Source of the DNA: a virus
Taxonomy: Duplodnaviria > Heunggongvirae > Uroviricota > Caudoviricetes
Reading direction: 5' to 3' (one strand)
IMG/VR virus record: IMGVR_UViG_2639762873_000006
Coordinates: 1-27,572 of that record
Length of the DNA: 27,572 nt
Made by a program: the position numbers and the translations under genes. Each line of letters begins with the position of its first letter. Position 1 is the stretch's first letter. The notes beneath the pieces are model-generated. The model was not told the origin of the DNA and ran no database searches. It saw nothing but the letters and a program-made list of their open reading frames with translations. Positions 1-9,495 of the stretch are shown in pieces.

Positions 1-294
1 ATGTCTAAGGGTGTATCTACTGATTTGATCATTAAGGCACATGATTTAGGATTCAAGATTAACGAGATTGATAATCGTGTAACGGGAATGTTTCATGTAG
101 TAATTAGTTCCCGTCATAATGAGCGTGAATTATTCAGTATGTTTCTTATGTCTGGTGGCTTGTTCCATTGGGAAAAGAACATCAATTTACCCAAGAGTGT
201 AACCGATAAGATCACTATTGCCCGATTCGATGGTGAACGTGCTTTCACTTCATTACTAGAAGTAGTATCCGAAGAAATTACTAACGTACATTAA
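1..294 (+). CDS. hypothetical protein (ATG at window position 1; may extend upstream of the window)
   Basis: 97-aa ORF from the six-frame track; followed by a hairpin at 299-337; no recognisable motif. Confidence 0.4.
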   Translation: MSKGVSTDLIIKAHDLGFKINEIDNRVTGMFHVVISSRHNERELFSMFLMSGGLFHWEKNINLPKSVTDKITIARFDGERAFTSLLEVVSEEITNVH

Positions 295-298
295 TCAA

Positions 299-337
299 TT
301 AACACTACTAGTACCGGAAATATACTGGTAGTGTTAA
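299..337 (+). terminator. imperfect hairpin after first ORF (about 13-bp stem, one mismatch)
   Basis: TTAACACTACTAG ... CTGGTAGTGTTAA inverted repeat directly after the stop at 292-294; no clear T-run. Confidence 0.3.
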
Positions 338-615
338 TATGGACACTCTATGAAAAAATTAACCTTTACTTACCTTGCGGCTGCAAATTTCTTTTTCTTC
401 ATTGCTGGGATCTTTACATGCGTATTAGTTGTATTGCAGGTGGACTTATAACCGAAGTTTTCGACGATCACGACCGAAAGGTAGGGGCGGTCACTATGTC
501 TAAGCATCCCCGACACATCAACAAGCCTTTTAGTGATGGTAAGAAGTGGCACACTACCTATAACGAAGCACTATTGAGCTTACTTACTAGAAAACGCGTC
601 AACATTAAGCTATGA
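331..615 (+). CDS. hypothetical protein, start uncertain (GTG at 331; internal ATG at 496 would give a 39-aa basic peptide)
   Basis: ORF whose stop overlaps the next start as ATGA (612-615), suggesting translational coupling; N-terminal half is Cys/Trp-rich and looks unlike protein. Confidence 0.3.
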   Translation: MLIWTLYEKINLYLPCGCKFLFLHCWDLYMRISCIAGGLITEVFDDHDRKVGAVTMSKHPRHINKPFSDGKKWHTTYNEALLSLLTRKRVNIKL

Positions 616-833
616 ATGATCTACATGAGCTAAACGTACTCTATATAGATACAGTACGGAAACTTACCGAAGAAGATCTACTAGGTGAATTTGGTCTTAC
701 CAGTGAGATGATAAACACTTTGAAGGAGATCCCACTTGCAAATATAGTTAAACTAACCGATTGTACTCAGTTACTGTTAAAACCAAATGAGGCTGTATTA
801 TGGGAAGCATTAAAAGCATTACCGCAAAAATGA
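612..833 (+). CDS. hypothetical protein (73 aa)
   Basis: ORF with ATGA overlap to both the upstream and downstream genes. Confidence 0.5.
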   Translation: MNDLHELNVLYIDTVRKLTEEDLLGEFGLTSEMINTLKEIPLANIVKLTDCTQLLLKPNEAVLWEALKALPQK

Positions 834-1483
834 TCAGTACGATTCTGAATGATGATTTTAATGTAGGTATGTTGACTGCCGACGCAACAGGCCGCAATGC
901 ACTGGCAAACGTCAACGAAGAAGATATAGATACACTTATTCAACGCCTGGGCGAAGTGAAGGACTATGTAAGCACACTACGTACCGAGCGACTAAACGAA
1001 GCTAAGAAGCTATTAGAATCACTTGTACAAGAGTCTGGTAGCTTCTCTAGTGTAGAGGAACTGCTTTCTACACTTGCCGTATCTTCTCCTGCTTCCATAC
1101 CACAAAAAGCATCGAAGCCAAACGGTAATAAGATATTCGAAGTAGTCATAGTTGATAGCAAGAAGGACGAAAGAAGAACCTATAATGTAATCAATAAGAA
1201 GTTACCAGCGGCATTACTCAAGGATGAAGTATACATTCAGTTGGTTAAGAAGAATCCCGAACTATCGGACGTTGACGAGTTTTTACGGGCGTATAGTGAG
1301 GACTATCGCAAAAAATACCCGCTTAATGCGAAGTGGAACGGTCATGAGTTCCATCTAAACCAGAAAGGGAAGATGAACGCGAAAGCACAAGAATACTACG
1401 CCGAGTACAAGCAGCAGTATCCTAAACAGGCCGACGAGCAAGACTTTAAAGAACTTGTTACTAAAGCGTATAAGGTAGTATAA
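830..1483 (+). CDS. hypothetical protein with Lys-rich C-terminal half
   Basis: ORF 800-1483 in the track; ATG at 830 overlaps the upstream stop (ATGA), so 830 is preferred. Confidence 0.5.
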   Translation: MISTILNDDFNVGMLTADATGRNALANVNEEDIDTLIQRLGEVKDYVSTLRTERLNEAKKLLESLVQESGSFSSVEELLSTLAVSSPASIPQKASKPNGNKIFEVVIVDSKKDERRTYNVINKKLPAALLKDEVYIQLVKKNPELSDVDEFLRAYSEDYRKKYPLNAKWNGHEFHLNQKGKMNAKAQEYYAEYKQQYPKQADEQDFKELVTKAYKVV

Positions 1484-1490
1484 GAATAAC

Positions 1491-1523
1491 AATAGCTACT
1501 ACACAAATAAAGTAGTAGCTATT
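1491..1523 (+). terminator. perfect 12-bp stem hairpin (AATAGCTACTAC / GTAGTAGCTATT, 9-nt loop)
   Basis: Inverted repeat read directly from the sequence just after the stop at 1481-1483; no T-run, so it may be a processing or attenuation site rather than an intrinsic terminator. Confidence 0.45.
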
Positions 1524-1591
1524 ACTAAATATCATAGCTATAATAATTCACATCAAACATCACCTCACACAATCACTACAAGGATTTACTA

Positions 1592-1972
1592 ATGAAAAAT
1601 CTCTTTACCCTAGCTGTACTCGCTACGGCTACAATCACTACTGGCTGTACTACTATAACGCCTGCTTTTATGAATGAAGCCGTAGTAGGTGATATTAACG
1701 GTCGTACACTAGTATTATTCCCCGTAAATGGTGGTAAAGAGTATCGCCCACAATTCAGTAGTGATTGTCAGCCTATGCTATTGGGTGAAGAACGCCCATC
1801 TACTGGTAGCTGTATTATTGCCGCCGACCGACTTACAAATATTCATAGCTTCGAAGAACATAAAGCCCACGGCCCCCACAAAAACACCACTAAGATAGTT
1901 GATCGTTCAAATAATTACGGTACAGAATTTGAGTTATCGAAACCAACTAATTATATAGACGATAATCTGTGA
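1592..1972 (+). CDS. putative lipoprotein (126 aa)
   Basis: N-terminus MKNLFTLAVLATATITTGC: basic residue, hydrophobic core, lipobox-like TTGC with Cys at about position 19; RBS AAGGA 8 nt upstream. Confidence 0.6.
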   Translation: MKNLFTLAVLATATITTGCTTITPAFMNEAVVGDINGRTLVLFPVNGGKEYRPQFSSDCQPMLLGEERPSTGSCIIAADRLTNIHSFEEHKAHGPHKNTTKIVDRSNNYGTEFELSKPTNYIDDNL

Positions 1973-2151
1973 TGAAGAAAACAATATTTGCCGTACTTTT
2001 AGTTATGGGGACTGCATATTACTATGATATAATAAAATACATTAACCCTACTTATTAAATTGCAGTCGCCGTAATCAAAAACACTGTCATTATCTGGCAT
2101 CAACAATGCCATTGATTCTGATAAAGTAGATAATCCCGAATGGATGAATTT

Positions 2152-2532
2152 ATGAAAAAGATTGTACTGTCTGCATTACTGTTAGTAGCCCCTTCGGTAC
2201 TGGCAGTAAATGTAATACTCCCTGATGATGGTTTATATCGTTGCGGTGTTGAATCGTGGGAACAGGTAGGAAAGCGAGTAGTAAAGACTGGTTATTATGG
2301 TATGACTGGTTATGTGAGTATTGATAACCGTGCTGTTAGTGTGAAGTTTAGGGATATGAATATTTCATTCAGCCCTGTTTCAAAACTTAAAAGCGGTCGC
2401 CTGATGGCCTATGCCGTAGATACTGACCAGTACGATATTATTATTAGTGCAATCAATGGTAAAACACAGTATATGGTCAGCAATGAGAATAATCCCGTAT
2501 TTTTGAACTTCTCCAATTGTATTATTGAATAA
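2152..2532 (+). CDS. secreted protein, paralog A (signal peptide MKKIVLSALLLVAPSVLA)
   Basis: Start at MKK chosen by alignment to paralog B; shared GLY(R/Q)C motif and C-terminal (F)(S/Q)NC(I/V) motif. Confidence 0.6.
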   Translation: MKKIVLSALLLVAPSVLAVNVILPDDGLYRCGVESWEQVGKRVVKTGYYGMTGYVSIDNRAVSVKFRDMNISFSPVSKLKSGRLMAYAVDTDQYDIIISAINGKTQYMVSNENNPVFLNFSNCIIE

Positions 2533-2541
2533 GGAATAGAA

Positions 2542-2928
2542 ATGAAAAAGGTTATCGTATCTGCATTACTGTTAGTAGCTCCTTCGGTACTGGCTAACAC
2601 TCACTCTCTACCAGAGCAGGGATTGTATCAATGTGATGTGAAAGTAGTTGAAATGCTGGGTGATACTCCAGTAGAAAAATCTTCTTATTCTGGTGCAGGT
2701 CACGCTAAAGTTAATAGTGATGGTTTTATCCTTAACTTCGGTGCAATGACTCACGCCACCGGACCAATAGAATCTAATGATTCAATGACAATGGCTTATG
2801 ATAATGATAAGCAGCGATACTTCCTTGCAACAATGGGAAGTAAAGAGCAAAACGATATTACTTTTATCTTCTTATTGAGATCTGATACTCGTAATTACTA
2901 CTTTCAAAACTGCGTTAAAATAAAATAA
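2542..2928 (+). CDS. secreted protein, paralog B (signal peptide MKKVIVSALLLVAPSVLA)
   Basis: RBS AAGGAA upstream; signal peptide nearly identical to paralog A at nucleotide level; mature part diverged. Confidence 0.65.
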   Translation: MKKVIVSALLLVAPSVLANTHSLPEQGLYQCDVKVVEMLGDTPVEKSSYSGAGHAKVNSDGFILNFGAMTHATGPIESNDSMTMAYDNDKQRYFLATMGSKEQNDITFIFLLRSDTRNYYFQNCVKIK

Positions 2929-2937
2929 GGGATATAT

Positions 2938-3147
2938 ATGTCAGAGAAACTAATTAAAGCAATCCGTAATATCACGGAATATAATATGAGTATTGAGCGT
3001 ATCATTGTTAGTACCGAAGACCAGCAACACTATTATAGTATTAATCCTTATAAGGAAACTGTAATAAAGGTAGCAGACCAATACGGCAAACCAATTGAAG
3101 GGGAAGTAGAAATACCACAAATACCGCCATTATTCGATACTAACTAA
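2938..3147 (+). CDS. hypothetical protein (69 aa)
   Basis: ORF with RBS AAGGGA; followed by an intrinsic terminator. Confidence 0.5.
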   Translation: MSEKLIKAIRNITEYNMSIERIIVSTEDQQHYYSINPYKETVIKVADQYGKPIEGEVEIPQIPPLFDTN

Positions 3148-3153
3148 TAATAT

Positions 3154-3180
3154 AGCCCACTAATAAAAGTGGGCTTTTTA
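3154..3180 (+). terminator. rho-independent terminator (AGCCCACT / AGTGGGCT stem, then TTTT)
   Basis: 8-bp perfect stem, 6-nt loop, T-run, directly after the stop at 3145-3147. Confidence 0.7.
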
Positions 3181-3198
3181 ATCTAATAAGGAAAGTAA

Positions 3199-3672
3199 AT
3201 GAAAATTATAAAAAACATTCCTTCACTTCCAGATGTAGAAGTGACACTAAGTAGCCGTACTAATGAAATTGTATTAGTACACAATACTAAAACTGGTCAT
3301 ACAGTAGTAGAGAATAATGATTCATGGTATGAGGGAAACACCGATAAAAAATCACATTGGGGTGATCATATCGATGATGCAGCAGCTTTTCATAGCTTCG
3401 CACAGAATCGCTGTACTAATCCCACTACTAAACCAGATCAAATTAGTGATTTAGCATTAGGTACGTTTTGCTTTCATAATGTATTAGAAGAAGATCTTGT
3501 ATTTGAAAACACTGATTACCATGCTGCAAGGTTATCCGGTATAGGTCGTGTAGTACCCACTGATTATAATAGTGTGACGGTATATGATCCAAATAATAAC
3601 CCACCAACCACTATTACAGGCGATGCAGCAGAAATTATAGTTCGCCTTCTATCAATGACAGTAACCAACTAA
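3199..3672 (+). CDS. hypothetical protein (157 aa)
   Basis: ORF with RBS AAGGAAA; no recognisable motif. Confidence 0.55.
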   Translation: MKIIKNIPSLPDVEVTLSSRTNEIVLVHNTKTGHTVVENNDSWYEGNTDKKSHWGDHIDDAAAFHSFAQNRCTNPTTKPDQISDLALGTFCFHNVLEEDLVFENTDYHAARLSGIGRVVPTDYNSVTVYDPNNNPPTTITGDAAEIIVRLLSMTVTN

Positions 3673-3678
3673 TAATCT

Positions 3679-3700
3679 AGCCCACTACTCACAGTGGGCT
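3679..3700 (+). repeat. second copy of the AGCCCACT / AGTGGGCT hairpin (different loop, no T-run)
   Basis: Same 8-bp stem as at 3154-3175 with conserved flanks (TAATAAT.TAG upstream, AATCTAA..AGGAAA downstream). Confidence 0.5.
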
Positions 3701-3725
3701 ATTCAATCTAACGAGGAAAAATATA

Positions 3726-4382
3726 ATGACAGGTAAAGAACTATTTGAAGAATTTATTATGCACGATCACCGCAAAGGACTTACATGTACTATTGATATT
3801 CGTCCTTCCAGTAAGCCGGGATTCGAACTAATCGGGGTAGGTCATTTCAATTTAGGTAAAGGTTATCGTTTCTATCTCAGCGAAGACTGCGTAGAAATCC
3901 GTGATAATCTATCCCGCTTACGTCATGAACATCGTAAAATAGTATCAGAACGGTTAGACGATCCAATAGAGGCACTAGATTCAATTATCTATTCTTCTCT
4001 ATATGGTGATTATCATGGCTGTACTAATCGTTATTTTGGCGGTGTATTAGTTCACTACGCATTAGAACTAAAATCAAAGATAACCGTAACTATATCTACT
4101 GATGAAAACTTATTGTTCAAAGATCTACCGCCAGATGTACAGGAAGAAATGAAGTATGATGTATATCTAAAAGATCGCAAACGTGTAGTAGCTTATGACT
4201 CATTACAATATAGTGATAATAAAGAATTTATCCTACAACACTATAAACCATGTGCCCCACATCCAAATCGTGTAGTATTCACAGATGGAACGGCAGAACA
4301 GCTACAAGATCAATCACCAGTACATATACCTGGCTATACTGAATACGTAACTAGCTATACTGGTAAACGCCACTTCAAGTAA
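3726..4382 (+). CDS. hypothetical protein (218 aa)
   Basis: ORF with RBS GAGGAAAA; no recognisable motif. Confidence 0.6.
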   Translation: MTGKELFEEFIMHDHRKGLTCTIDIRPSSKPGFELIGVGHFNLGKGYRFYLSEDCVEIRDNLSRLRHEHRKIVSERLDDPIEALDSIIYSSLYGDYHGCTNRYFGGVLVHYALELKSKITVTISTDENLLFKDLPPDVQEEMKYDVYLKDRKRVVAYDSLQYSDNKEFILQHYKPCAPHPNRVVFTDGTAEQLQDQSPVHIPGYTEYVTSYTGKRHFK

Positions 4383-4395
4383 TCCCATCCCCTAA

Positions 4396-4422
4396 ATACT
4401 CCTATACATGCTATAGGAGTAT
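4396..4422 (+). promoter_or_regulatory. perfect 11-bp stem hairpin whose 3' arm contains the GGAG Shine-Dalgarno of the next gene
   Basis: ATACTCCTATA catgc TATAGGAGTAT; GGAG at 4416-4419 lies in the right arm, 9 nt before the ATG at 4429. Confidence 0.4.
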
Positions 4423-4428
4423 CACACC

Positions 4429-4815
4429 ATGAATACAATCTACCTACACTTCCCTGATGGAACGTATAAGGCCATAGAAAGCACCACAGGCCGACAGGAA
4501 TCAGGATACATACCATCACGCAAGGATAAGCTAATAACCGCTCATATCATCACACAGGACGGTTACGAGCTATTCATAGATACCTATACACTAACGCTTA
4601 AGTATAAATACATTACATTAAACTACTCACGCTTCACCATAGGCCGTACTAATTACCCTATCAATGCACTAGATACATTCAGCGGTAGTGAGCTACCACA
4701 CTTAACCCGACTAAGGGAACTACGCGACGAGATCTTACAGTACCGTACCGTAGATGGTCTGCCTATCTCTTATCGTTGTGATGTAATCGTTAGTAATATG
4801 GTGATACTCAAGTAG
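4429..4815 (+). CDS. hypothetical protein (128 aa)
   Basis: ORF; its RBS is embedded in the upstream hairpin. Confidence 0.55.
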   Translation: MNTIYLHFPDGTYKAIESTTGRQESGYIPSRKDKLITAHIITQDGYELFIDTYTLTLKYKYITLNYSRFTIGRTNYPINALDTFSGSELPHLTRLRELRDEILQYRTVDGLPISYRCDVIVSNMVILK

Positions 4816-4991
4816 ATTGCATAGACAATGCATAAACAGTGAATAATAGAATGATGGTATACTTCGGTACTGATAGGTGAAACATATCAACATTATGTGC
4901 AATTTGTGCGATTTTATCGAAAAATGATGAAATAAATCAAAATAAAGGTTGACAGTCCAAAATTATCATAGGTTCTCCCAAAAATGGCAAA

Positions 4992-5013
4992 GAGGGCGAG
5001 TTTTCGCCGCGAG
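4992..5013. other. GC-rich island in an AT-rich non-coding region; candidate cos/terminase recognition element
   Basis: GAGGGCGAGTTTTCGCCGCGAG is the only GC-rich stretch in the 4816-5132 intergenic region, about 120 bp upstream of the terminase small subunit; contains a GGCGA/TCGCC hairpin and elements like those I recall from lambda cos (GGGCG, GTTTTCGC). Confidence 0.25.
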
Positions 5014-5132
5014 TTATAATAAAAATACGTGAGAAATTTTACATAAAACAAACAAATATATAGATAAAACCTATTAGTACCGAAATAGATAGAAAATACC
5101 AATCAATGGAAAATGAATAGGAATTGCATAAA

Positions 5133-5702
5133 ATGGCAAAAAATAAAGACGATGGAACCCGCTATTCCTGGCAAGAAATCGCCGACCGATTCGGCGTAGA
5201 ACATTCCACAGTATCGCGTATCTGGTCGGGGAAAGGATTAGATATTAGCTGGCCTAAGAAATTAGTAGACGACTGGTTACTAGCGAACGTAATCGAACCA
5301 ATGCGTAATGGTGATGTGAAGGGAATGATCCATAAAGCCACACTACGCAAACTAGAAGCAGAAGCAGACCTAAAAGAATTAGAACTACGACAGCAATCTG
5401 GTGAACTAATTCCGGTAGCAGTAGTACAGCAAACATTATCACAATATTTCTATCAACTACGTCAGGTACTAAGAAGTATACCGGCAGCAAGTTACGTAGA
5501 ACTATTTGAATCACAGGACGCTTTAGAATTAAAAATTAAATTACAGGACAAGATAGACCGCCAGCTAGAGGAAATAGGCGGCTATGAATATGAGGGAACA
5601 TATGAAGAACAACTACCAGAAGATGATGAAGATCCTAACGAGGGCGGCGAAGTCGATCCTACCTCCGAAGAAACAACTACCCGCAGAGTGGGTAGAGAGT
5701 AA
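5133..5702 (+). CDS. terminase small subunit (HTH DNA-binding, acidic C-terminus)
   Basis: Immediately upstream of the large terminase; helix-turn-helix-like SWQEIADRFGVEHSTVSRIW near the N-terminus; track start 5124 is TTG, so the first ATG at 5133 (RBS AGGAA) is preferred. Confidence 0.6.
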   Translation: MAKNKDDGTRYSWQEIADRFGVEHSTVSRIWSGKGLDISWPKKLVDDWLLANVIEPMRNGDVKGMIHKATLRKLEAEADLKELELRQQSGELIPVAVVQQTLSQYFYQLRQVLRSIPAASYVELFESQDALELKIKLQDKIDRQLEEIGGYEYEGTYEEQLPEDDEDPNEGGEVDPTSEETTTRRVGRE

Positions 5703-7497
5703 CCTAGTCTTCCCCGATGGCGAACTACAAGGGCAACGCGTCAAATTATTTGCCTTTCAACATAAGCCCATCAACGATATAGTTAATCCACGTGTACGTA
5801 AAGTGGTACTAATGAGTAGTGCTCAACTTCTCAAGACAACGGTACTACAGAATAGTATGTACTACTTCCTCGCCAATGATCCTAGTAACATGATATTTGG
5901 CGGTGCTACTGGTGGTACTACTAGTAAATTTAGGACTGGTAAATGGCAAGCAGTCATCGAAGCATGTTCGGTACTGAAAAATCTCGTTAGTAATAAGAAC
6001 GACAAGAACTATACGAACAATGACAAGACACAACAAAATTTAGATGGTACGTTTACCTACTTCCTGTCATTGGGTAGTAGTGCTTCACTACGTGGTCTAA
6101 CGGCCCCTCGCGTATTTTTGGATGAGATATCCAATGTCAACGCCGACGGCGAAGAAGGCAATCCCTTGAAGCTGGCAGAACAGAGAACGAAAGCATTCAG
6201 TAACCCCCTTATTATGTGCTGTTCTACTCCACTTGATGAACATGACCTGATTACCCAACAGTACGAACAAAGTAATAAACAAAAGTTTTATGTACCTTGC
6301 CCTCACTGTAACCACTCACACGAAATGGTATTTGAAAATGTTAAATTCGAATGGAAGATTATTGAAGGCGGTCGCCGTCGTATTCCTGATGCAGACACTG
6401 CAAGGCTAGAATGTCCTAAGTGTAATAATGTAATAACAGAAGCAGAACGTGTACGAATGATCCGTAGGGGTGAATGGATAGTAACAGCACCAGAAGTAAC
6501 CGATATAATGGGCTATCACATATCTAGACTCTATTCCCCTATCAACTCGATCAAATCGATTGTAGCAGACTTTGCCGAAGCACATTATACCTTTGACCTT
6601 GCATCATTCTATAACAACGTCTTAGGACTACCATATATTGATAAAGAGAATACCGACCATGATTTAGTATTATTGGAGAACCTAAGAGATAGTGAAATAG
6701 ATATTAATAATATACCCGACGATGTACTAGGGGTGGTATACGGCGTCGATCAGCAGCTCGACAGGTTGGAGGTAACTACACTAGGAGTAAGTGAGAAGAA
6801 TCTCTATGTTTTAGATCATCGCAGTATATACGCAATTGACTGTACTAAAATCGAAGCCCCAGCATGGAATAAACTAACGGCCTTTGCCAATGCACCATTG
6901 AAAACACATTCGGGTAAACCACTTAAAGTATTAGCCGGATTCGTCGATAGTAGTAATGGCAACGCAACCAGTACCGTATATCGTTATTGCAGTAACTCTA
7001 CTATCTTTAAACCTATTAAGGGTGGTACGTCTAACTCAAACCCACTATTCAAAGGTAGTACCGCTGGTGGTCACTCCCTGATTAACCTTAATGTAAACTT
7101 AGGTAAAACGAACGTTAGACAATTACTAAACCGTGCTGTATCCGATAGTGAAAATAGTAAGGAAGTACAAATACATTTCAGCCATTCATTACCAGATGAT
7201 TACTTTATTCAGATTACATCCGAGAAACGAGTGATAAAGGCTGGTGCCTGGGTATGGGTGAAAAAGGTTAGTAGTGCGAGGAATGAAACTCTCGATTGTC
7301 TTAATTACTCGCTTATATGTTTCCAGTGGTATCTATCTAAATTGGGTAGTCAACCATTCCGACAACTAAGGGAATATAACGCGAAACAAAAAGAGAAAGC
7401 AGGACTAAATAAAGAAGTAAATACAGAAGAAGCACCAACTAAGCCAACTCCAAAACGAGTAATAAGGCCGCGTAAAGGTGGTGGATTCTTTAAATAA
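5584..7497 (+). CDS. terminase large subunit, lambda gpA-like family
   Basis: 637 aa, close to lambda gpA length; N-terminal LPAEWVESN...FP motif resembles the gpA N-terminus; zinc-ribbon-like CPHC ... CPKC; C-terminal ETLDC motif. The 5' end overlaps the small subunit by about 119 nt; alternative start ATG 5602 has a GAGGGA RBS. Confidence 0.85.
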   Translation: MNMREHMKNNYQKMMKILTRAAKSILPPKKQLPAEWVESNLVFPDGELQGQRVKLFAFQHKPINDIVNPRVRKVVLMSSAQLLKTTVLQNSMYYFLANDPSNMIFGGATGGTTSKFRTGKWQAVIEACSVLKNLVSNKNDKNYTNNDKTQQNLDGTFTYFLSLGSSASLRGLTAPRVFLDEISNVNADGEEGNPLKLAEQRTKAFSNPLIMCCSTPLDEHDLITQQYEQSNKQKFYVPCPHCNHSHEMVFENVKFEWKIIEGGRRRIPDADTARLECPKCNNVITEAERVRMIRRGEWIVTAPEVTDIMGYHISRLYSPINSIKSIVADFAEAHYTFDLASFYNNVLGLPYIDKENTDHDLVLLENLRDSEIDINNIPDDVLGVVYGVDQQLDRLEVTTLGVSEKNLYVLDHRSIYAIDCTKIEAPAWNKLTAFANAPLKTHSGKPLKVLAGFVDSSNGNATSTVYRYCSNSTIFKPIKGGTSNSNPLFKGSTAGGHSLINLNVNLGKTNVRQLLNRAVSDSENSKEVQIHFSHSLPDDYFIQITSEKRVIKAGAWVWVKKVSSARNETLDCLNYSLICFQWYLSKLGSQPFRQLREYNAKQKEKAGLNKEVNTEEAPTKPTPKRVIRPRKGGGFFK

Positions 7498-7507
7498 GGA
7501 AAATAAA

Positions 7508-7999
7508 ATGGCAATAGTTCGCAAAGTAACTTTAAAAGGCGATATCTTTAAAGGCGAGACTATTACATTCGATTACCCCGCAGGGTCAGAAGTAGACTTG
7601 ATTGATCCAAACGGGGTAAAGACCTCATATACATATCCCTTCCCAGATATTGATACTAGTAACTGGGTAGCGGGTGTATGGACTGCAATTATTAACAGTA
7701 CCGTAGCATATGGTGTACAACAATTCGAAGTAATAGATCCAACTTCTAAAGCGTCAGAATATAACGACCTGATGCAAATCATCAAAGATATTGACCAGAT
7801 CATCATGGATAGAATTAAGGGCGGTGGTGTATTAAGTCAATCAATTCAAAATAAATCATTAACATATGAAAGTAGTGAAATACTTATGAAACTACGCCCT
7901 GTATATGTCAGTCGTGCAAATGATTTACTTTCGGATATGAAAGGATTCAATACTGGATGTCCTATCAAATCAATTACTACATTTAGGAGATCTCGCTAA
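7508..7999 (+). CDS. hypothetical protein between terminase and portal (163 aa)
   Basis: ORF with RBS AAGGAAA; occupies the position of lambda W but is larger and shows no similarity I can recognise. Confidence 0.5.
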   Translation: MAIVRKVTLKGDIFKGETITFDYPAGSEVDLIDPNGVKTSYTYPFPDIDTSNWVAGVWTAIINSTVAYGVQQFEVIDPTSKASEYNDLMQIIKDIDQIIMDRIKGGGVLSQSIQNKSLTYESSEILMKLRPVYVSRANDLLSDMKGFNTGCPIKSITTFRRSR

Positions 8000-9495
8000 T
8001 GTTCGGATGGAATAAAAAGAAAGTAGAAGAACCAAAACAAAAAGTATTAGTACAGAAGCCAGTGAAGCTAATGAAGAATAACCCGATGAAACGTGCAATG
8101 ACTTCCCTTAATTTGGGATCATCTAGCCCTGTTATCTCATTTGGCTTCACTGGCGGTAATCAGGCTGGCAATATTAACGCCATCATTAACCGTAATCTAC
8201 CTGTTATGGTTGCAGTAAGTCGTGAACTCTCAATTAAGAACGGTATTGTAAAGAAATATGTCAGTACGAATAGTGCGGGTGTAACGGGTGCAGATGGCCT
8301 ATATATTCGTCCTTGTACCCATAGCTCCGACGACGAACAAGTTAACCAGTCAATCGATAAACAGATTGAAGATGCATTCTATGCATGGGCCGAAGATCCT
8401 AAAGCGTTTTCCCGCTGCGGTACTCTAGATATCAGTACCTTCCAACGTCTGGTAGAACGTACTCGATCAGTAGATGGTGATTGTTTCATTCGCGTTCACA
8501 GTAAGCCAGGAGAGCTACCACAGATTGAGATTATCGATTCTATGCGTATCTCGACCTATGAGAACCAATTACTACCGTCGGGAAACTTTATCAGCAATGG
8601 TATTGAATTTGATATCAATACAAACCGTCCTGTAGCGTACTGGGTAACACGTTATAACCCCATCATGTACAACTATATGATTGGTGAGCGTGAGCGAGTA
8701 CCAGCAGACGAGATCCTACACCTATTCCAGCAGGACTACCCAACACAGCAACGCGGTATTCCAGATGTGCATTCCGGTACTGAAAAGTTAAAAGAGTTAG
8801 AGGAATTTATGGCGGCGGCAATTACTTCCCGTAAGGTTGCAGCGTCCGCAATGGCCTTTATCACTAATCCAGATAGTGACGATGTACAGCTACTGACTGA
8901 TGACAGTGTATCATACTATGATCAGGACTATCTAAATCCGGCTGCAATCGTAGAACTACAGGCAGGTCAGGATATTAAAACAGTAAACCCATCTCAGACT
9001 ACCGACGGTATTCAGGAGTTTATTGATAACCAAATGATGATGATTGCAATGGGATTAGATATTACAAAACAATCTCTAACTTCTGATACTAGTAATGCTT
9101 CATTCAGTGCTGCAAAGTTAACTGATAAATTACAGCAATCAACATTTAAAAGCCGTACTAATGCTTTAATTGTATCTGTACTAAAACCTCTTTATATTGC
9201 ATGGTTAAAATCTGCAATGCTAAATAGTAGTACATTAAGCAATTTAAATTTTAGTGATTTTAATAAATTGACTCATGCACAATATGTACAGACGCGTCAA
9301 ATCTCCCTAGATCCATATAAAGACCTTCAAACCGAAGTATTGGCAATTGATAACGGTTTAAAGAGTAAGGCAATGGTAATTTCGGAGATGGGATACGATC
9401 CGGTTATTGTCATGGAAGAAATCAACAAGGAAAATAAAGAAAATGGAATTGAACAAGAACCAGACGAGGGCGATCAATCTAACACAAATCAATAA
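7999..9495 (+). CDS. portal protein
   Basis: 498-aa ORF immediately after the terminase module, strong AGGAG RBS, acidic C-terminal tail; assignment is by position and size, not by a recognised motif. Confidence 0.65.
   Translation: MFGWNKKKVEEPKQKVLVQKPVKLMKNNPMKRAMTSLNLGSSSPVISFGFTGGNQAGNINAIINRNLPVMVAVSRELSIKNGIVKKYVSTNSAGVTGADGLYIRPCTHSSDDEQVNQSIDKQIEDAFYAWAEDPKAFSRCGTLDISTFQRLVERTRSVDGDCFIRVHSKPGELPQIEIIDSMRISTYENQLLPSGNFISNGIEFDINTNRPVAYWVTRYNPIMYNYMIGERERVPADEILHLFQQDYPTQQRGIPDVHSGTEKLKELEEFMAAAITSRKVAASAMAFITNPDSDDVQLLTDDSVSYYDQDYLNPAAIVELQAGQDIKTVNPSQTTDGIQEFIDNQMMMIAMGLDITKQSLTSDTSNASFSAAKLTDKLQQSTFKSRTNALIVSVLKPLYIAWLKSAMLNSSTLSNLNFSDFNKLTHAQYVQTRQISLDPYKDLQTEVLAIDNGLKSKAMVISEMGYDPVIVMEEINKENKENGIEQEPDEGDQSNTNQ

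Follow-up and report, generated by a model that had tools for sequence, protein, structure and literature searches.

The window analysed here, a stretch of 27,572 nucleotides (nt) from a virus record assigned to the Caudoviricetes (IMGVR_UViG_2639762873_000006), belongs to a prophage-like element with close relatives in Escherichia coli. On its left side lies a group of small accessory genes, and further to the right a gene of 128 amino acids (aa; 4429-4815), the first of the conserved backbone, which leads into the packaging and structural genes. Between them stand a 69-aa open reading frame (ORF) and two genes called here geneA and geneB, and the two gene boundaries on either side of geneA resemble each other so closely that they constitute a repeated cassette with a hairpin in each copy (C1 and C2; Table 1). 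The genes around this repeat are all on the + strand.

C1 and C2 were found by the repeat search as a direct repeat of 56 nt (family D6), with 47 of the 56 positions identical (84%). A scan of the window for the pattern AGCCCACT-N(3-12)-AGTGGGCT returned two exact matches, 3154-3175 and 3679-3700, for a chance expectation of 0.00 in 100 dinucleotide-preserving shuffles. The repeat starts 6 nt inside ORFs 2938-3147 (...ACT AAC TAA) and 3199-3672 (...ACC AAC TAA), whose proteins both terminate in Thr-Asn before TAA TAA, and continues in the order TAATAAT, hairpin, AATCTAA and AGGAAA ahead of the next ATG. Both hairpins begin 6-7 nt past the TAA stop on the coding strand; their stems are the same at 16 of 16 positions and their loops differ at three of six. 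Hairpin 1 has 8 base pairs (bp), five of them GC, and a 6-nt loop, while hairpin 2 has 9 bp. As RNA, both are predicted to fold stably, with a minimum free energy of -13.6 kcal/mol (z -2.6) for the first and -15.0 kcal/mol (z -4.4) for the second, and the predicted fold of each copy is just the expected hairpin. The T-run is restricted to copy 1 (GGGC-TTTTT), copy 2 reading GGGC-TATTC. In all these respects the original prediction, made by reading the sequence alone, has been confirmed: it had described about 50 bp shared by two consecutive boundaries, identical stems, an onset within two genes whose products end in TN and a T-run in the first copy only. It had also extended the repeat into the ribosome-binding site of the downstream genes, and AGGAAA is indeed present in both copies; however, this motif probably represents the Shine-Dalgarno sequence proper to each downstream gene and not a part of the homologous repeat, because geneA retains AAGGAAA(C)AAATG in L034 and L038 (locus numbers are ours), where no hairpin precedes it.

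Table 1. Features of the repeated gene boundary and its surroundings (positions in the window)
Feature	Coordinates	Strand	Description
69-aa ORFan	2938..3147	+	upstream of C1; product ends in Thr-Asn; no family matches
Cassette copy 1 (C1)	3139..3194	+	last two codons and TAA of the 69-aa ORF, TAATAT, hairpin 1, T-run, AATCTAA, geneA Shine-Dalgarno
Hairpin 1	3154..3175	+	8-bp stem AGCCCACT/AGTGGGCT, loop AATAAA; GGGC then T5 (3175-3179); reported by the + strand terminator-like scan
Segment missing from type I (geneA, C2, geneB)	3183..4390	+	BLAST of L020/L028 and L035: homology over 1-3182, resuming at 4391
geneA, 157-aa ORFan	3199..3672	+	between C1 and C2; absent from type I and type IV relatives
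Cassette copy 2 (C2)	3664..3719	+	last two codons and TAA of geneA, TAATCT, hairpin 2, ATTCAATCTAA, geneB Shine-Dalgarno
Hairpin 2	3678..3701	+	9-bp stem TAGCCCACT/AGTGGGCTA, loop ACTCAC, no T-run; not reported by the + strand terminator scan
geneB, 218-aa rare ORFan	3726..4382	+	downstream of C2; no hairpin follows
Leader hairpin	4396..4422	+	11 bp, ATACTCCTATA-CATGC-TATAGGAGTAT; includes the Shine-Dalgarno (GGAG) of the 128-aa gene

About 40 related loci were recovered from viral contigs, complete E. coli genomes and public assemblies. Further copies of the hairpin, whose complete absence would have spoken against the original prediction, are present in related prophages, both at the same boundary and behind unrelated genes. 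Concerning the closest relatives, E. coli elements 90-99% identical to the window show four arrangements between the accessory genes and the 128-aa gene. In type I (L020/L028, L035, L062, L063, L066-L069, L071) a single hairpin comes after the 69-aa gene, then GGGC-TTTTTT-ATTCCTG and then directly the leader CCTAAATACTCC... of the 128-aa gene, geneA and geneB being absent. The left edge of the segment that type I does not possess falls directly past the T-run of hairpin 1 and the right edge directly ahead of the packaging-module leader. In type IV (L051-L055) a 152-aa gene ending in TTTCTAA is followed by CAATCT, a hairpin with loop AATTAC, GGGC-TTTT, CAATCTAGCGGGG / CAATCTAGCGGGGTAATATAATG, geneB, TAATACCCCCTCC, TTTATTCCTG and the leader. 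The hairpin of this arrangement, AGCCCACT-AATTAC-AGTGGGCT followed by GGGC-TTTTC, is orthologous to hairpin 2, and its geneB is 84% identical to that of the window. The tail TTTATTCCTG stands directly after the hairpin in type I and beyond geneB in type IV, and this displacement to the far side of the gene makes geneB look inserted inside the T-run of the terminator.

Type II (L034, L045, L047, L057, L058), which lacks C1, has the same TAA stop of the 152-aa gene, followed by GGAAAACAAATG, geneA (...AACTAA), TAATCT, a hairpin with loop ACTCAC and geneB; compared with type IV, geneA and its own ribosome-binding site are placed exactly between stop codon and hairpin. Type III is the arrangement of the window itself, with two hairpins (L040-L044, L046, L048, L049, L064, L065, L070); it is present in at least 11 independent assemblies and therefore it is not an assembly artefact. 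The strain of GCA_011751205.1 is one carrier of the type III element, and NZ_CM151386.1 represents a type I lysogen. In other assemblies, what comes after the 69-aa ORF is either the packaging-module leader (type I) or geneA (type III). Every insertion, deletion or replacement breakpoint that separates these close relatives lies within about 40 nt of this hairpin, a result that supports the recombination-mediated module exchange put forward in the original prediction. A TCTAA motif is found at every junction (directly before it in ...TTTCTAA and AATCTAA, and as TCTAAATAC in L030), and it may have served as microhomology.

The origin of the two-copy arrangement can be read from the cassettes themselves. 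Between 3139 and 3179, up to the end of the T-run, C1 has the same sequence as the type I cassette of L028 and L035, and C2 is identical to the cassette of the type II loci, while C1 and C2 differ from each other by 16%. Since the left half of the arrangement (69-aa gene and AATAAA hairpin) matches type I and the right half (geneA, ACTCAC hairpin and geneB) type II, its two-copy state is most simply that of a recombinant which kept the terminator of each parent, and not of an in-place duplication. Moreover, the block of geneA and geneB is 99.8-100% identical across loci whose adjacent packaging genes differ by 5-8%, indicating that it spread laterally and recently over diverged backbones. We therefore propose, with a probability of about 0.72, that hairpins 1 and 2 are copies of one ancestral Rho-independent terminator located at a preferred site of gene exchange and that the window is a type I/type II recombinant.

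According to this proposal, the ancestral terminator would close the integrase-proximal operon of small accessory genes, just ahead of the packaging/structural operon, in a family of Enterobacteriaceae prophage-like elements, and the stretch made of stop codon, hairpin, T-run and leader would be the place where this family preferentially gains, loses and swaps ORFan genes. In the window, a type I-like left arm (69-aa gene and AATAAA hairpin) would have been joined, just past the T-run, to a right arm formed by geneA, the ACTCAC hairpin and geneB. Relatives that infect the same cell or reside in it together may have recombined through the conserved cassette of about 45 nt, which would offer them a patch of homology. 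Template switching or breakage may also be provoked by the hairpin itself, as would fit the loop inversions described below, and selection would then retain only intergenic junctions.

To follow the terminator farther, we considered the more distant relatives. In L030-L033, with about 75% nucleotide identity in the packaging genes, the alignment to the window begins exactly at 4392 (homology starts at 4392-4393 when L029 is included), and just upstream of the leader, after an unrelated 77-aa gene, these loci carry AGCCCACT-AATCAC-AGTGGGCT and a run of seven T. L038 and L039 have AGCCCAC-AATCAC-GTGGGCT and six T after an unrelated 146-aa gene, the innermost pair of the stem having been lost with both bases together. 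In L029 the stem is a different one (CCAGC/GCTGG), with the same T6-ATT tail at the same position, and therefore what is conserved at the last boundary before the packaging genes is a hairpin with its T-run and not a specific sequence; most members of the family have this particular hairpin there. One or two substitutions separate AATCAC, the loop retained in the type I locus L069, from each of the loops AATTAC, ACTCAC and AATAAA. Since the loops derive from AATCAC and the distant relatives share the hairpin, both copies of the window descend from one ancestral terminator and are not look-alikes. The stem of hairpin 2 is perfectly conserved in types II, III and IV, though flanks and geneB have diverged by up to 16%.

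The joint between terminator and leader carries an insert of about 95 nt in L033 (1197-1292), with inverted-repeat ends AAAGATGACAAAT...ATTTGTCATCTTT, and one of about 125 nt in L038 (9332-9440), with 16-bp inverted repeats CTAAAAGTGCATCTTT...AAAGATGCACTTTTAG; we consider them further independent insertions at the same joint. A related stem, GCCCAC-TTAAT-GTGGGC with A6 on its left, is found some 650 nt before the window begins (L028 305-321; L040 4349-4365). It closes the 3' end of the one small gene of the accessory region that is on the minus strand, seems to be the terminator of that gene and may belong to the same hairpin family as a third member.

The same observations bear on whether the two copies could have arisen by local tandem duplication or slippage in one genome, or could be convergent look-alike terminators. 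The second possibility draws on the fact that GCCCAC/GTGGGC stems are common in unrelated phage terminators: in a scan of viral contigs, 26 of the 27 loci bearing the stem were unrelated terminators with other flanks, and for this reason the stem sequence alone is not diagnostic. However, the similarity between C1 and C2 extends beyond the stem, for 15 nt upstream and 11 nt downstream; each copy matches a different sampled lineage exactly; the genes in front of them, the 69-aa gene and geneA, are not paralogues; and the loops have the common source just described. A recent duplication in place would also fit badly with the 16% difference between the copies. We judge this explanation, in both its forms, extremely improbable.

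Some points weigh against the recombinant reading and should be noted together. The hairpin copies were found partly through searches with the stem, so that its apparent conservation is inflated. The 19 nt AATCTAATAAGGAAAGTAA at the joint between C1 and geneA occur in neither of the sampled parent types, and therefore the exact parents and the crossover have not been recovered. When the contexts of the 69-aa, geneA and geneB proteins were inspected, the predicted product of a deletion between C1 and C2 (69-aa gene, cassette, geneB) was not seen among the approximately 40 loci. That the junctions cluster at the hairpin could be due to selection favouring intergenic insertions that do no harm, with no mechanistic preference for the site. 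Finally, termination, read-through and attenuation are all deduced from the anatomy of the hairpins. Finding the arrangement 69-aa gene-cassette-geneB and a parent of the form X-hairpin-AATCTAATAAGGAAAGTAAATG-geneA would fix the history of the recombination.

The loop of hairpin 1 (3162-3167) gives a further indication of rearrangement. The window and six type I loci have AATAAA, whereas 11 type III and two type I loci (L068, L071) have its exact reverse complement, TTTATT. Over about 1.6 kb around the hairpin, the sister type III loci have the same sequence as the window except for these four bases of the loop and one single-nucleotide polymorphism. Because both orientations occur in both gene arrangements, the loop flipped more than once or was reshuffled, and such exact inversions mark the hairpin as a site of intramolecular rearrangement.

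It could be asked whether the hairpin is a recombination site for a dedicated enzyme (the serine recombinase, the GIY-YIG nuclease or another protein), geneA and geneB being captured cassettes comparable to those of integron attC sites or to the mini-circles of PeSL elements. The perfect 8-bp inverted repeat, with 6 bp between its arms, resembles an operator, there are three independent insertion points no farther than about 40 nt from the hairpin, the loop inversion in the sister loci is exact, and the element encodes both a large serine recombinase and a GIY-YIG protein. However, the insertion points vary (before the stem, inside the T-run and after it) and reveal no common cut site or core, while L029 has another stem sequence at the same place. 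No tyrosine integrase IntI and no attC-like site of 57-141 nt were found, and the serine recombinase already has an obvious role as the integrase acting at yegD. Moreover, the cassette was found nowhere else in broad scans. The cassette of hairpin 2 occurred in one of 5,426 complete E. coli genomes, in a search that needs an exact word of 11 nt; the cassette pattern gave three unrelated matches in 185,579 species genomes (beside an Aeromonas rRNA operon; Celerinatantimonas) and none in JGI metagenome contigs. For all these reasons we hold a dedicated recombination site to be very unlikely. An integron attC site with its R''/L''-L'/R' cores, or a gene cassette in the strict sense, was rejected, the hairpin being a perfect 22-nt palindrome without the GTTRRRY core and the sole recombinase of the element being of the large serine type. 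A dispersed repeat of the REP/BIME or MITE type was likewise rejected, as the cassette is near-absent from E. coli genomes, species genomes and metagenomes.

A related idea, in our opinion quite unlikely, is that the terminator hairpin is an active, structure-driven site of gene capture, through extrusion during replication or through cleavage by a nuclease or recombinase, rather than a passive patch of homology. If this were true, ORFans would be inserted at breaks or template switches and flanked genes such as geneA would leave as circles; the cassette would then be the promoter-less counterpart, in temperate phages, of PeSL mini-circles or integron cassettes, and the loop inversions would be a by-product.

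The possible function of the terminator in transcription was evaluated from the hairpins and their surroundings. After the stem, four T are found in type IV, five in hairpin 1, six in type I and seven in L030-L032, and each copy directly adjoining the packaging leader has a run of six to seven. Hairpin 1 and its orthologues have a GC-rich stem of 7-9 bp and a 6-nt loop, start 3-12 nt past the stop codon and are co-oriented with the genes. The stems of hairpins 1 and 2 fall within the range usual for intrinsic terminators, about 5-14 bp rich in GC with a loop of 3-8 nt. The shared terminator signal suggested in the original prediction is supported by these data, copy 1 having the anatomy of an intrinsic terminator. 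The promoter scan detected no sigma-70-like promoter on the + strand in 3139-3198 or in 3664-3725, the nearest candidate being at 3613-3641, outside the repeat. The intergenic spacers measure only 51 and 53 nt, and in the 25-51 nt that separate any of these hairpins from the next start codon no sigma-70-like promoter fits; therefore the downstream genes should be expressed by read-through or by regulated antitermination.

Judging from its anatomy (GGGC and T5), hairpin 1 would still terminate or attenuate the transcription coming from the accessory genes, and copy 1 is probably an attenuator. Transcription probably reads through copy 2, which has lost its T-run. This U-tract would have been lost when geneB entered the T-run and would then have decayed from T6-T7 to T4 (type IV) and to T-A-TT (types II and III), a stepwise loss that would fit the need to transcribe geneB and the packaging genes through hairpin 2. 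The stem of hairpin 2 may persist as an intercistronic stabiliser of the 3' end or as a simple remnant.

An alternative interpretation of the same hairpins is that they are mainly signals of RNA processing or stability, such as an RNase III site or a barrier to 3'-exonucleases, and not terminators, their coincidence with insertions and deletions being incidental. Both hairpins are predicted to be stable as RNA, and hairpin 2, although it lacks a U-tract, has kept its stem without any change in types II, III and IV. However, RNase III requires about 20 bp, approximately two helical turns; the stems have only 8-9 bp, no longer alternative appears in 60-nt folds, and an RNase III processing site was judged unlikely on this basis. 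The RNase III cleavage assay suggested with the original prediction is thus unlikely to be informative, the stem being far too short. Furthermore, the 6-7 T run of all copies adjoining the packaging leader is the hallmark of an intrinsic terminator. No Rfam family was matched at gathering thresholds, and below threshold only weak matches to terminator-shaped leader families appeared. A stabilising role of hairpin 2 would be compatible with the ancestral terminator proposed here and is not opposed to it. We regard processing or stability as the main function of these stem-loops as unlikely.

Downstream of geneB, the packaging operon opens with the leader hairpin, which has a minimum free energy of -12.9 kcal/mol (z -5.5) and is kept in all relatives: its eight variants retain ten pairs and show four U-G cells and, in L056, a single compensatory change from U-A to C-G; on the other strand the U-G pairs would be mismatches. 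It may be an element of translational or stability control at the start of the packaging operon. The loop of the leader hairpin is found inverted as well, CATGC in the window (4407-4411) and GCATG in L045 (9192-9233), with identical arms. The possibility that AAATACTCCTAT in the leader is a repeated promoter-like motif was discarded, as its five near-matches against 2.6 expected are not significant.

Concerning the genes, none of the ORFs upstream of position 5100 (the 69-aa ORF, geneA, geneB, the 128-aa gene and their neighbours) has a match in Pfam, PHROGs, PADLOC or NCBIfam. GeneA forms only three clusters at 90% identity among 5.8 billion proteins, and an exhaustive HMMER search found only six clusters for geneB; the AlphaFold models of both proteins are unusable (pLDDT 41.6 and 36.3, respectively). 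The downstream module encodes a small terminase subunit, a lambda-type gpA large terminase (5584-7497), a head-tail joining protein and a lambda-family portal (7999-9495), followed by the remaining virion module. The closest relative of the terminase has 37% identity, and a megablast of 2500-6500 against 50,697 phage records gave no match. A protein-alignment scan of genome contigs was also without a match.

A relative of the window in E. coli strain WGI31CT spans about 32.5 kb inside yegD; one of its ends carries a large serine recombinase, and almost every gene is transcribed in the same direction. The window (27.6 kb) corresponds to most of this element (compare L050, NZ_CM135810.1, 117657-150156). 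Its annotations include the tail genes DUF2163 and DUF6950, a fibre with an S74 peptidase and the GIY-YIG protein, and no replication or repressor gene is annotated except a small ribbon-helix-helix protein. The element could be either a small temperate phage that has not been characterised so far or a particle element of phage origin.

Other observations concern the regions on both sides of the repeat. The ORF at 1592-1972 has a lipoprotein-like signal at its start (…ITTGC), and ORFs 2140-2532 and 2542-2928 are adjacent paralogues with a common stretch of 53 nt, 89% identical, coding for an N-terminal signal peptide (family D7); the accessory region may thus encode secreted or envelope proteins. 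The replacement breakpoint of type II (window 2370/2371) falls within the first of these paralogues. The 308 non-coding nt at 4816-5123, between the 128-aa gene and the small terminase gene, hold several short palindromes and are the most divergent segment among near-identical type III loci, making them a candidate for a cos/packaging or regulatory region. Finally, the 41-nt gap 25906-25946, which separates a lysozyme-like gene on the minus strand (25453-25905) from a divergent plus-strand gene, consists of the inverted repeat AAATAACCTTA...TAAGGGTATTT with both ribosome-binding sites and is too small for conventional divergent promoters.

The boundary described here can be compared with several known systems. 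The promoter-early stem-loop (PeSL) cassettes of T4-type phages run from stop codon to ribosome-binding site, contain a stem-loop and flank ORFans, and both their recombination and the release of mini-circles from them have been demonstrated (Arbiol et al. 2010, PMC2839356; Comeau et al. 2014, PMC4122927). As in that system, an ORFan lies between two cassettes in one phage and a close relative has a single cassette (RB49 ORF192 versus phi1), the cassettes coincide with junctions of insertion, deletion or replacement between near-identical phages, and the stem-loop is bounded by the upstream stop codon and the downstream Shine-Dalgarno/ATG. However, the PeSL cassette includes an early promoter (-35, N17, -10), whereas the cassette of the window has no sigma-70-like promoter; it is also shorter (about 45-56 nt versus about 100 nt), it is present in two copies per genome instead of about 50 dispersed in hyperplastic regions, and it resides in a small temperate prophage-like element with a lambda-type gpA terminase and not in a T4-type myovirus.

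The morons of lambdoid phages, defined as independent transcription units with their own promoter and terminator and a deviant composition (summarised in PMC3594210), are similar in being extra ORFans present only in some members, in lying between genes that would otherwise adjoin each other and in their association with a terminator hairpin. Unlike morons, geneA and geneB have no promoter of their own that could be found upstream, geneB has no hairpin downstream, the GC content does not differ from that of the surroundings (36-38%; 0.36 at 3001-4000, neighbours 0.36-0.40), and the genes are oriented as their neighbours and probably depend on read-through. Moreover, type I has the hairpin without the cargo, and hence the hairpin belongs to the recipient site and not to the cargo, as it would in a moron. 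With intrinsic terminators, hairpin 1 and its orthologues share a GC-rich stem, four to seven T, the position just past the stop and the co-orientation, while hairpin 2 departs from them for the missing U-tract; since no downstream promoter is evident for the packaging operon, termination would have to be partial or overridden. A parallel for the loops is given by the minute inversions at hairpin loops in plastid spacers such as trnH-psbA (PMC2903610), where, as here, a loop between perfect inverted arms is reverse-complemented in near-identical sequences and both orientations recur across lineages; in our case, however, this occurs in a terminator and in a leader hairpin of a prophage.

In conclusion, the cassette is best described as a terminator serving as mosaic joint and insertion site in a temperate phage, PeSL-like without the promoter and yet outside the PeSL family. 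A single terminator has received at least three separate insertions, at points ahead of the stem, within the U-tract and beyond it, and has been a joint between lineages, and an insertion can disarm it by parting the stem from its U-tract. This is clear but fairly ordinary phage mosaicism, which offers a sequence-resolved case of how ORFans enter temperate phages and move between them, and from which testable predictions arise on terminator strength, geneA circles and loop flipping. Its practical value is modest, namely module boundaries for the annotation of the family and a tolerated insertion site for engineering. The idea of linker cassettes, experimentally established for the PeSLs of T4-type phages, is thereby extended to a small uncharacterised family of E. 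coli prophages.

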